Below the pieces are notes generated by a model, which ran no database searches, was not told the DNA's origin, and saw only the letters and a list, made by a program, of their open reading frames with translations. This document shows positions 58,960-64,000 of a DNA stretch of 64,000 bases, one piece after another; positions within the stretch are counted from its first letter, which is position 1; every line of letters starts with the position of its first letter. This stretch comes from Escherichia coli (GTDB lineage: Bacteria; Pseudomonadota; Gammaproteobacteria; Enterobacterales; Enterobacteriaceae). A program made the translations under genes and the position numbers. The stretch lies in the NCBI RefSeq assembly GCF_044324785.1, contig NZ_CP172127.1. One strand, 5' to 3'.

Positions 58960-59751
58960 TTACATCGCGTTCAGACGTTTTTGCGCCTGTTTAGCGCCAT
59001 CAGTACCAGGATATTTACTGATAACCTGCTGGTATACGGCTTTCGCTTTTGCGGTGTCACCTTTGTCCTGCATGATGACGCCGACTTTAAACATCGCATC
59101 TGCAGCCTTTGGTGACTTCGGATAGTTTTTCACTACCGAAGCAAAATAGTACGCCGCATCATCTTTTTTACCCTTGTTGTAGTTTAACTGACCCAGCCAA
59201 TAATTGGCGTTTGGCAGGTAAGTTGAATCAGGGTAATTTTTGATGAAATTCTGAAATGCCACCATTGCGTCATCCTGGCGGGATTTATCCTGCACCAGCG
59301 CAATAGCTGCATTGTAATCCGTGTTTGCATCACCGCTTTTCACCGGCGCGCCAGCATTCGCAGTACCAGCATCAGCTGTCGGCGTCGTTGATGCCGCCGC
59401 ACCGCTTTGATCACCGCTGGTTGATTGCGCCGCTGCACCACCGCTGCTGAGGCTGTCGATCTGCAACAGGATCTGCTTTTGCCGCTCCACGACCTGATTC
59501 AGTTGATACTGATTTTCCTGAATCTGACCGCGCAGGGAATCAATATCGGATTGATTATCAGAGAGTTGTTGCTGGAGTTGGGTTAAAAGCTGGCTGTGAG
59601 CATTTGAAATACGCTCAAGTTGAGTGACGCGGTCTTCGACCGAGCCTGAGCCGACACTACTGATTGGTGCCTGAGCAAAAGCGGCCCAGGGGGCCGCTAT
59701 ACCAACCAGTAACGACAGACTCAATAGTTGATGTCTGAAGTTACTGCTCAT
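58960..59751 (-). CDS. cpoB: Cell division coordinator CpoB (YbgF), TPR-repeat periplasmic protein
   Basis: 263-aa ORF with signal peptide, coiled coil and TPR repeats, downstream of pal. Confidence 0.93.
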   Translation of the reverse strand: MSSNFRHQLLSLSLLVGIAAPWAAFAQAPISSVGSGSVEDRVTQLERISNAHSQLLTQLQQQLSDNQSDIDSLRGQIQENQYQLNQVVERQKQILLQIDSLSSGGAAAQSTSGDQSGAAASTTPTADAGTANAGAPVKSGDANTDYNAAIALVQDKSRQDDAMVAFQNFIKNYPDSTYLPNANYWLGQLNYNKGKKDDAAYYFASVVKNYPKSPKAADAMFKVGVIMQDKGDTAKAKAVYQQVISKYPGTDGAKQAQKRLNAM

Positions 59752-59760
59752 GCAATTCTC

Positions 59761-60306
<546 letters not shown>

Positions 60307-60316
60307 TTAATTATTA

Positions 60317-61609
60317 TCACAGATACGGCGACCAGGCAGGGAATTTGACCTGTCCATCAGTTGCCGGAAGACGCGCTTTGAAACGCCCATCTGTAGAAAC
60401 CAAATTCAGCACGGATCCCATCCCCTGAGAAGAGCTGTAGATTACCATAGTGCCGTTAGGTGCCAGACTTGGCGTTTCATCCAGGAACGTGGACGACAGA
60501 ACTTGTACGCCTCCCGTTGCCAGATCTTGTTTGGCAATGTGCTGCTGCCCACCATTGGAGCTGACCATTACCATAAATTTACCGTCGCTGCTGACATCCG
60601 CATCCTGGTTCTGCGAACCTTCCCAGGTAATACGTTGTGGCGCACCGCCGTTGATATTCACTTTATAAACCTGTGGACGACCGGCCTGGTCAGAAGTAAA
60701 TGCCAGGTTCTGGCTGTCCGGGAACCAGGTCGGTTCGGTATTGTTACTGCGACCATCCGTCACCTGGCGGATCTGACCAGAAGCCAAATCCATTACGTAC
60801 AGGTTCAGACTACCGGTTTTCGACAAGGCGAATGCCAGTTTGCTGCCGTCTGGCGAGAATGCAGGTGCACCGTTGTGACGCGGGAATGAAGCCACCTGAC
60901 GTACAGCGCCATTTGCCAGCGTTTGGATGACCAGCGCGGAACGACCGCTTTCGAAGGTCACATAAGCCAGTTTAGAACCGTCTGGTGACCACGCCGGAGA
61001 CATCAGCGGCTGCGGTGAACGGTGAACGACAAACTGGTTGTAACCGTCATAGTCAGATACGCGCAGTTCATACGGGAACTGACCGCCGTTGGTCTGAACA
61101 ACGTAGGCAATACGGGTACGGAACGCACCTTTAATGCCGGTCAGTTTTTCAAACACTTCATCACTGGCGGTATGACCAGCATAACGCAGCCACTGCTTGT
61201 TCACTTTGTACGAGTTCTGAGCAAGTACAGTACCCGGTGCGCCGCCAGTGTCAACAAGTTGATAAGCAACATTGTAAGAACCATCCGGATTCGGAGTGAC
61301 CTGACCGACAACTACAGCGTCAATACCCAGCGCAGACCATGCAGCTGGTTGTACTTCCTGCGCACTACCCGGCTGCTGTGGCAGACGAGCGCGATCTAAC
61401 GGATTAAATTTACCGCTGTTACGCAAGTCAGCAGCAACGATACCGCCAATATCTTCAGGTGCCGCACCAGGACCCGCCCACTGGAAAGGAACAACGCCAA
61501 TAGGACGACCGGAATCTACACCGCTGTCGATCACAATGCGGACTTCAGCATGCAGAACTGATGCCCACAGTATGAGAAAACCAAATGCTACTCGTAATGC
61601 CTGCTTCAT
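60317..61609 (-). CDS. tolB: Tol-Pal system periplasmic protein TolB
   Basis: ORF 60317..61612 (430 or 431 aa) with signal peptide and beta-propeller. Confidence 0.95.
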
Positions 61610-61741
61610 CATATCTCCCTTATCTGGACCGATGGCCCACGATAATTTAGCAGAATGTTAACAAACTAAAATACACAAAACTACCAGAACCCCGTGGCAA
61701 CCGGAGCCTGATGTTGACCGTCGGAACAGTCAGCATCGCGA

Positions 61742-63007
61742 TTACGGTTTGAAGTCCAATGGCGCGTTTTTGAACACTTCATATACTGCCTGGCTTGGTG
61801 GTTTCGGGATCTTCGCAAGTTTAGCTGCTGCCAACGCAGCCTGACAAAGTGCGGGATCGCCACCTTCAGGTTTGATATCCAGTAACATACCATCGGGTGC
61901 CAGTTTTATGCGCAGCGTACAGGTTTTGCCTGCATAGGACGATGCGTCATAGAACTTACTTTCGATAGCAGATTTAATCTGCCCGGCATAGTTATTGATA
62001 TCGGCCCCTGATGCGCCATTGTTTTTAGTATTACCACTCCCGGCTGGCGAAGCATTGTTCCCTTTCGCCCCTCCCCCCGTTTTCGGTGCATTCTTACCAG
62101 AGCTTAGCTCACCGAAAATATCATCTGCCTCTGCGGCCGCTTTTGCTGCAGCGGCTTTTTCAGCTGCTGCTTTTGCAGCTGCCGCTTTTTTGTCTGCGGC
62201 GGCTTTTTCTGCCGCTGCTTTCTTATCAGCTGCTGCCTTTTCAGCAGCCGCTTTTTCTGCTGCTTTTTTGTCGGCTGCAGCTTTCTCTGCTGCCGCTTTC
62301 TTATCAGCTGCAGCCTTTTCAGCAGCCGCTTTCTTCTCAGCTTCTGCCTTGGCTTTTTCAGCAGCTTCAGTTGCCGCTTTCTTTCTTGCTTCAGCTGCAG
62401 CTGCTTCTGCCGCTTCCGCTTTCTTCTTCAGTGCCGCCGCGGCTGCCTCGGCTTTTTTCTGCGCTTCGGCTGCGGCTTTGGCGGCTTCTGCTTCTGCTTT
62501 TTTCTTCGCGTCTGCAGCCGCTTTCTTCGCAGCTTCTTCCGCAGCTTTAGCATCCGCTTCGGCCTTCGCTTTAGCATCTGCCGCCGCTTTCGCTGCCGCC
62601 TCTTCCGCTTGCTTCTGCTTTAACTCGGCCTGTTTTGCGGCTTCTTCAGCCTGCTTTTTCTGCTCCTGAGCCGCTAACCGCTCTTTCTCAAGTTGCTTCA
62701 GGCGTTCCTGTTCAGCCGCTTGTTTCTCACGCAGTTCTTCAGCAGCCTGCTGTTCCTTCATCTTGCGCTGCTCATCAGAACGCTTCGCGCTTGATTCCTG
62801 GCTTTGCATGCGTTTGTACTGCTCAACTACCGCACCTGAATCAACCATGACAGCGTCGATGGACGAACCACCGCCGCCTCCGGCTGAAGCTTCTATATTC
62901 TCATCGAACGAACTCCAGATCAGCGCCGCAAATAAGATGACATGCAGCACTGCTGAAATAATTATCGCCCGCTTGAGCTTGTCGTTTTGTTCGGTTGCCT
63001 TTGACAC
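61742..63007 (-). CDS. tolA: Tol-Pal system protein TolA
   Basis: 421-aa ORF with N-terminal TM anchor, long Ala/Lys/Glu-rich helical domain II and C-terminal domain III. Confidence 0.95.
   Translation of the reverse strand: MSKATEQNDKLKRAIIISAVLHVILFAALIWSSFDENIEASAGGGGGSSIDAVMVDSGAVVEQYKRMQSQESSAKRSDEQRKMKEQQAAEELREKQAAEQERLKQLEKERLAAQEQKKQAEEAAKQAELKQKQAEEAAAKAAADAKAKAEADAKAAEEAAKKAAADAKKKAEAEAAKAAAEAQKKAEAAAAALKKKAEAAEAAAAEARKKAATEAAEKAKAEAEKKAAAEKAAADKKAAAEKAAADKKAAEKAAAEKAAADKKAAAEKAAADKKAAAAKAAAEKAAAAKAAAEADDIFGELSSGKNAPKTGGGAKGNNASPAGSGNTKNNGASGADINNYAGQIKSAIESKFYDASSYAGKTCTLRIKLAPDGMLLDIKPEGGDPALCQAALAAAKLAKIPKPPSQAVYEVFKNAPLDFKP
62100..62700. repeat. Degenerate tandem coding repeats in tolA domain II
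   Basis: Repeated gcagc/ctgc-rich units encoding the KAAAEKAAADKKAAAE periodicity; they generate long spurious plus-strand ORFs. Confidence 0.7.
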
Positions 63008-63071: not shown

Positions 63072-63500
63072 TTAGATAGGCTGCGTCATTAAACCAACCG
63101 ATTTCACACCCGCACTATGTAACAAGTTCAGTGCTTTAATTATTTCATCGTAAGGCACATCTTTTGCGCCACCGATCAGAAAGACCGTTTTCGGGTTGGC
63201 CTTGAAACGGCTGGACACTTCCGCCACCACCTGCTCTGGTGGTAAACGCTCCAGGCGATCTTTCTCAACCACCACGGTGTACTGACCAATACCAGACACT
63301 TCAACAATCACTGGCGGATTATCGTTACTGCTCACCGCCTGTGATTCAGTAGCGTCTGGCAGATCGACCTCCACGCTCTGGGTGATGATGGGCGCTGTCG
63401 CCATAAAGATCAGCAACAGCACCAGCAGTACGTCCAGCAACGGTACAATGTTGATTTCGGACTTGAGATCGCGACGACCCCGTCCACGCGCTCTGGCCAT
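63072..63500 (-). CDS. tolR: Tol-Pal system protein TolR
   Basis: 142-aa ORF; synteny. Confidence 0.95.
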   Translation of the reverse strand: MARARGRGRRDLKSEINIVPLLDVLLVLLLIFMATAPIITQSVEVDLPDATESQAVSSNDNPPVIVEVSGIGQYTVVVEKDRLERLPPEQVVAEVSSRFKANPKTVFLIGGAKDVPYDEIIKALNLLHSAGVKSVGLMTQPI

Positions 63501-63503
63501 GGC

Positions 63504-64000
<497 letters not shown>

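Follow-up and report, generated by a model that had tools for sequence, protein, structure and literature searches.

In-frame repeat units and stalk-length alleles in the domain II coding region of Escherichia coli tolA

Does the repetitive part of tolA differ in length from one Escherichia coli strain to another and, if so, which part of it is really a repeat, how do its units come and go, and what could this mean for the stalk that it encodes? The question is raised by the window analysed here, a stretch of 64,000 nucleotides of E. coli DNA (contig NZ_CP172127.1 of RefSeq assembly GCF_044324785.1), in which a first-pass annotation had marked a repetitive tolA domain II coding region and anticipated length polymorphism between strains, with possible effects on colicin and phage uptake. 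The answer suggested by this work is that domain II contains an array of in-frame units which, very probably, recombine mainly via RecA and so yield functional TolA alleles of different stalk length. The finding of length polymorphism is correct but ordinary, as the repeat polymorphism of tolA was already published in 2012 (Zhou, Vanoirbeek, Aertsen and Michiels, Res Microbiol 163:316; Zhou, Michiels and Aertsen, PLoS One 7:e47766, PMC3477136), and those two papers describe the phenomenon along with how it arises and the phage and detergent phenotypes that go with it.

The locus is TolA by every membership feature tested, so that the earlier call of the region as tolA domain II was right, on the grounds of profile matches, identity to K-12 and operon context. 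The 421-aa protein scores 554 bits against the NCBIfam TolA equivalog NF007065 (cut-off 213), 308 bits against TIGR02794 (cut-off 59.45) and, with its last 95 residues (325-419), 130.9 bits against the Pfam TolA C-terminal family PF06519 (cut-off 25); it is matched by PDB 9k49_H over residues 1-421 (E 2.6e-227) and aligns as identical to the TolA of E. coli K-12 (WP_000030637.1). At the nucleotide level the two genes differ at 10 sites, all of them synonymous third-codon positions between 62045 and 62771; nine of these 10 sit in domain II (residues 79-280). The closest database match to the tolA of the window is that of strain Ecol_316 (99.9-100% identical), and the window is accordingly not K-12 DNA. 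The gene stands in the order tolQ-tolR-tolA-tolB-pal-cpoB on one strand (Table 1), and the RefSeq annotation at matching E. coli loci agrees with this Tol-Pal gene order. The three domains of TolA are all there: an N-terminal transmembrane helix with the S-H-L-S motif (S18, H22, L29 and S33 in the translation, with S18 and H22 invariant in an alignment of 36 TolA sequences), a long alpha-helical stalk of domain II made of 40% Ala, 19% Lys and 15% Glu, and a globular domain III. Domain III binds TolB, colicins and the phage protein g3p; no length variation was seen in it or in its linker among the alleles examined. On the plus strand there is an open reading frame of 224 aa (61995-62669), an Ala/Phe/Ser-rich mirror of the GCN-rich tolA repeat, which was rejected as a gene because it lies within a gene with an experimentally known product.

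Table 1. Positions in the window of tolA, its parts and its neighbours.
Feature	Position	Strand	Remarks
cpoB/ybgF	58960-59751	minus	TolA_bind_tri and TPR
pal	59761-60306	minus	OmpA family
tolB	60317-61612	minus	TolB_N and PD40
tolA coding sequence	61742-63007	minus	GTG start; 421 aa and stop
Linker and domain III, residues 311-421	61745-62077	minus	Pfam; PDB 3qdr, 2x9a, 1tol, 1s62
Domain II, residues 48-310	62078-62866	minus	between glycine linkers G43-47 and G311-313
Tandem array proper, residues 225-293	62129-62335	minus	13 in-frame units, imperfect, each 15 or 18 nt
Last two units, TR12 and TR13, residues 284-293	62129-62158	minus	kept in 17/17 alleles examined
Two 78-nt higher-order copies, five units each	62258-62335 and 62180-62257	minus	68/78 identical
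Degenerate upstream units, residues 194-224	62336-62428	minus	KKKAEAAEAAAAEAR, KKAATEAAE, KA, KAEAE; sometimes in deletions
Remainder of interval, residues 103-193	62429-62701	minus	Ala/Lys/Glu/Gln-rich, helix-coding; weak 24-nt periodicity
tolR	63072-63500	minus	Pfam ExbD/TolR
Partial ORF in tolQ position, at the window edge	63504-63926	minus	tolQ annotated there in matching RefSeq records

The repetitive interval, 62100-62700, encodes TolA residues 103-303, inside the C-terminal half of domain II, and residue composition confirms its description as Ala/Lys/Glu-rich coding sequence (about 47% Ala, 21% Lys and 15% Glu; ranges 44-51%, 21-22% and 14-16%). The further claim, that all of it is a degenerate tandem array, holds by both TRF and autocorrelation for 62129-62335 only, periodicity being weak in the rest; the true array occupies only a third of the interval. 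TRF reports arrays with periods of 15, 30, 33 and 78 nt at 62130-62350, the best being a 78-nt unit in 2.0 copies (88% match, score 255), and merely low-scoring rows of 12 and 24 nt at 62449-62609. Autocorrelation in the array reaches 0.69 at lag 15, 0.67 at lag 33 and 0.74 at lag 78 nt, with z values of 4.6-5.8 (5.8 at lag 15, 5.5 at lag 78) that none of 1000 codon shuffles attained. For residues 103-224 (62336-62701) the one signal among 18 lags tested is at 24 nt (z 3.3, 1/1000 shuffles), and because this weak signal stands alone, that part is not a clear array: it codes for helix with a biased composition and includes a few degenerate units.

The 13 units of the array belong to the types KKAAAE, KAAAD, KKAAE, KAAAE, KKAAAA and KAAAA and, parsed by codon, run KKAAAE, KAAAD, KKAAAE, KAAAD, KKAAE, KAAAE, KAAAD (units 1-7) and KKAAAE, KAAAD, KKAAAA, KAAAE, KAAAA, KAAAE (units 8-13), each with a DNA sequence of its own. 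The array is, by definition, an in-frame intragenic VNTR. No homogenisation of the units at the DNA level, of the kind left by recent duplication or gene conversion, was found: permuting synonymous codons leaves the autocorrelation the same (z at most 1.8; any excess at lag 78 is slight), and the regularity of the DNA repeat therefore does not go beyond what the protein repeat requires. The best homology is at the 78-nt offset, with exact runs of 20 and 17 nt, the former being the longest exact direct repeat of the region (62313-62332 and 62235-62254), and the two 78-nt copies are likely to be the substrate of events that add or remove 78 nt, i.e., five units. At the opposite end of the array from the degenerate upstream units, TR12 and TR13 overlap the end of domain II (residues 280-313) reported to bind CpoB/YbgF (PMC8928145).

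The prediction that TolA length would differ between strains proved real, both in database samples and in individually fetched alleles, and repeat number is clearly not identical in all strains. A 1551-nt query (tolA and flanks) was run by megablast against 5,426 complete E. coli genomes, of which 5,425 matched, and two samples were taken in even steps down the BLAST ranking, one of 59 full-length rows and another of 60 rows (n=119). The span of the window, 1551 nt, was found in 40 of the 59 rows of the first sample; the others differ by +15, -15 (two rows), -18, +33 (two), -33 (two), +39, +45 (five), -51, +78, -81 (two) and -111 nt, all of them multiples of 3. With a 441-nt query for the array, 41 of the 60 rows of the second sample had the span of the window, and +12, +24 and -78 nt appeared as additional lengths. 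Altogether 81 of the 119 sampled rows (about 68%) have the length of the window and about 32% differ from it, although these are allele frequencies in a clonally biased database of complete genomes and not population frequencies. Using BLAST identity bands as an exact census of alleles was discarded, as they mix partial alignments, SNPs and indels together. For two of about 5,430 tolA matches the record is labelled a plasmid, and no match exists in one or two genomes; these could be misassigned replicons, duplications or deletions.

Seventeen alleles from other strains were fetched and compared with the window (18 sequences in all). Every one of the 17 is in frame and annotated as an intact coding sequence, and they encode proteins of 384, 392, 394, 395 (two alleles), 404, 410, 415, 416, 421, 425, 426, 429, 432, 434, 436 and 447 aa. 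The natural range in these 18 sequences is thereby 384-447 aa, or 6 to 18 canonical units. The variation is sharply localised: indels at the DNA level are confined to 62174-62497 (residues 171-278), and mostly to 62174-62383, no allele has an indel in the first 170 or last 143 residues of the protein alignment, and the remaining two thirds of tolA are indel-free in the 18 sequences. The length alleles look lineage-associated. The +45-nt allele (16 units, 436 aa) recurs in the human clinical isolates S3, 875, H105, GN05056 and Esc14, and O157:H7 records carry a rearranged -51-nt allele. Beyond E. coli, a homology search with TolA (8000 candidates scored) gave shorter TolAs of 253-385 aa from Photorhabdus, Xenorhabdus, Providencia, Proteus and Sodalis, as well as some chimeric metagenome proteins; low-complexity words dominated this search, and the 8000 scored candidates yielded no cluster of intact, full-length E. 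coli TolA.

The anatomy of individual alleles shows what is gained and lost. Indels are usually whole units in register, and hybrid units (A, E, F) mark the junctions of deletions: unit 11 is duplicated in strain D8, in-register losses of 15 or 33 nt have left hybrid units in UTI89 and A11, and PEC178 is left with 6 units, including a hybrid of units 3 and 10. Changes of 78 nt in either direction are over-represented among the length changes of tolA, with one natural +78 allele (L006) and two natural -78 alleles (L014 and L018) in the set. Z1323PEC0014 reached 18 units by clean duplication of the five-unit 78-nt block, whilst CEA212U and AF57 each lack one 78-nt block with different junctions and in different backgrounds, which indicates independent -78 events. 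The 16-unit alleles of S3 and DETEC-P881 look like the product of +78 followed by -33. Some changes reach beyond the array, as the degenerate upstream units were also lost in O157:H7 and APEC E19025, and L011 and L017 share a 6-nt deletion at 62399-62404; further non-canonical changes are +12 nt in L016 and a residual -3 in the alignment of L012. In JSWP006 (L015, NZ_CP147083.1) a 392-aa TolA results from an 87-nt in-frame deletion (62411-62497) flanked by two KKKAEA direct repeats and placed entirely upstream of the 13-unit array.

Such changes seem to have happened repeatedly. If the 957 nt outside the array are taken as a flank haplotype, that of K-12 is found unchanged with alleles of 421, 394 and 410 aa, and that of UTI89 is common to the 416-, 447- and 395-aa alleles; the flank of the 384-aa allele differs from the K-12 haplotype at two sites. 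The occurrence of several lengths on identical flanks implies that length changes are recurrent and would outpace point substitutions at tolA, a statement which is comparative in nature and not the measurement of a rate.

This picture agrees with what was published, where the authors count 13 imperfect repeats, 15 or 18 bp long, and mention less conserved ones upstream (PMC3477136). In a survey of 234 isolates by PCR and sequencing, as it is summarised in PMC3477136 (citing Res Microbiol 163:316), copy numbers run from 8 to 16, with 13 copies in 66%. The suspicion that the array is prone to slippage and recombination is borne out by the experiments of the same authors: contractions occur at a frequency of about 6.9e-5, fall to 15% of that in recA, rise 3.3-fold in a uvrD background and are unaffected by mutS, the predominant event is a deletion of five repeats, and repeats 12 and 13 are never involved (PMC3477136). 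Among isogenic strains carrying 2-39 units, higher copy number brings higher deoxycholate tolerance, across four orders of magnitude, tolerance of high salt at pH 5 is best at 6-13 units, and phage fd plates on every variant other than the 13-unit allele at 28-43% of its level on that allele (PMC3477136), so that the expected effect on phage infection has been vindicated for filamentous phage. Between that work and the present set there is no difference in kind. The 13-unit length is modal in both (66% versus about 68%), five-unit (78-nt) changes stand out in both, neither ever shows loss of the last two units and upstream units are sometimes involved; here, however, the range is slightly wider (6-18 units, 384-447 aa, versus 8-16) and one allele, that of JSWP006, has its deletion wholly upstream of the array.

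Put together, these data are best accounted for by the following mechanism. The stalk of domain II links the proton-driven TolQR motor of the inner membrane to domain III, which engages TolB-Pal, group A colicins and the g3p of filamentous phages at the outer membrane. Misaligned pairing between units would add or remove whole units whilst preserving the reading frame, and such pairing would be most ready between the two 78-nt five-unit blocks. The events would be mostly RecA-dependent unequal recombination, with a smaller RecA-independent fraction, and their outcome would be a family of functional TolA alleles whose stalks differ by 5-6 residues per unit. Because its units are quite diverged at the DNA level, the array is a modest substrate for recombination or slippage and not a classic high-frequency contingency tract.

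Another interpretation is that the region is mere Ala/Lys/Glu low-complexity coding sequence, in which indels arise independently of units and length variation is selectively neutral. This would fit the weak periodicity outside 62129-62335, a DNA repeat identity not above what the protein repeat requires, the few non-canonical indels (+12 and -6 nt) and the ability of colicin killing to tolerate domain IIs of very different length and composition (PMC10666116). It seems very unlikely even so, given that the signals at lags 15, 33 and 78 beat all 1000 codon shuffles, that the majority of indels comprise entire units or blocks, in register and joined by hybrid units, that they fall only in 62174-62497 and spare the other two thirds of the gene in the 18 sequences, that among isogenic copy-number variants deoxycholate tolerance varies by orders of magnitude and fd plating about 3-fold (PMC3477136), and that in two independent collections the 13-unit length is the modal one, with a share of about two thirds. 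Less probable still is that the length differences are assembly artefacts, with repeats collapsed or expanded by assemblers, as the clearly faulty NIPH17_0020 record (L013), with its garbled Ala-rich part of tolA, and three metagenome proteins (P0001, P0003 and P0062) that are chimeric or frameshifted in or near the array might suggest, since the 17 other alleles are all intact and in frame, lengths recur in independent assemblies (+45 in five rows; -81, -33, +33 and -15 in two rows each), an array of 207 nt with units unique in sequence is easy to assemble, and 8-16 copies were obtained by PCR and sequencing from the 234 isolates, as reported in PMC3477136 (citing Res Microbiol 163:316).

The faulty records have some features of their own. 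In NIPH17_0020 (NZ_AP024560.1, locus 1023-2214) tolA carries an annotation as two pseudogene fragments over a span of 1192 nt, with about 400 nt of the Ala-rich domain II out of frame and flanks near-identical to those of the window; its garbling probably reflects a consensus or assembly error limited to the repeat and not a natural null allele. Among the metagenome proteins, P0003 switches to foreign sequence inside KAAAE units, P0062 couples an N-terminal portion of foreign origin to a TolA C-terminal end, and P0001 has its C-terminus read through, plus an upstream deletion; all three are likely to come from chimeric or frameshifted short-read contigs.

If in-frame units do recombine into functional stalk-length alleles, as argued above, it is natural to ask what part of the protein changes. 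Domain II has been modelled as a long helical hairpin which extends under the proton-motive force to TolB-Pal (PMC8928145), and the length of this domain across Proteobacteria ranges from 110 to 335 residues (PMC12204202). For the 421-aa allele AlphaFold2 predicts a helix at 5-34, helices at 57-169 and 175-291 and a folded C-terminal domain, and for the 384-aa allele helices at 57-174 and 181-260; domain III of the prediction superposes on 3qdr, 2x9a and 1tol (the latter a g3p fusion) at TM 0.53-0.96, normalised by target length. The structure searches matched domain III only, and no solved structure covering domain II was found in them. Read from model summaries without coordinates and at a pTM of 0.28, the hairpin would have its two predicted helices matched in the 13-unit allele, at 113 and 117 residues, whilst in the 6-unit allele the predicted break stays put and the second helix is down to 80 residues. 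Copy number may, in these models, alter the second long helix only, and hence the reach, or parking position, of domain III. In JSWP006 the deletion removes residues 171-199, including the predicted interhelix break (170-174). It is tempting, if rather doubtful, to go further and suppose that copy number sets the length of the returning helix, that the alleles tune the parking of domain III and its force or reach, and that those of particular lineages are adaptive settings. If that were true, the 16-unit alleles of clinical isolates or the rearranged ones of O157:H7 would be settings of envelope robustness (e.g., for bile tolerance) and not neutral drift.

As for the colicin effect suspected at the outset, no colicin data for repeat variants were found in the literature. 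Domain II chimeras of varied length and composition were all colicin-sensitive, only the complete deletion of domain II having abolished killing; the rigidity of domain II tunes both outer-membrane stabilisation and the kinetics of colicin E9 import (PMC10666116). Given the chimera data, a large colicin effect of alleles within the natural range is unlikely.

The stalk of TolA has an analogue in the Ton system, where domain II of TonB, with its Glu-Pro/Lys-Pro repeats, is also a periplasm-spanning spacer, varies widely in length between species (PMC12204202) and is partly interchangeable with domain II of TolA (PMC10666116). Nevertheless, TonB domain II is a polyproline-II helix, unlike the alpha-helix of TolA, with which it shares no sequence similarity, and TonB serves another motor (ExbBD) and other outer-membrane partners. 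At the DNA level, the tolA array resembles the VNTRs and contingency loci of bacterial envelopes in having a unit which is a multiple of three, a copy number that varies between strains and changes that seem to outpace point substitution, with phenotypic consequences. It differs from contingency loci in that its units have diverged at synonymous sites and that its changes occur at a rate of about 1e-5 to 1e-4 and are RecA-dependent; in addition, tolA is a housekeeping envelope gene and not a phase-variable surface antigen, and changes in its length modulate function, with none of the on/off switching of contingency loci.

The idea that stalk length matters, and its first tests, date from the 2012 publications. 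What this work adds is confirmation in 5,426 genomes, with the 13-unit length again at about two thirds, a slightly wider natural range (6-18 units), an allele with an upstream deletion, a map of indels on the window, and the realisation that the DNA repeat shows no regularity beyond what the protein repeat imposes. Since domain II transduces force across the periplasm in the Tol-Pal system, its variable stalk offers a ready-made allelic series for studies of how reach and rigidity act on the stabilisation of the outer membrane, on tolerance of bile salts and on the parasitic uptake of colicins and filamentous phages.
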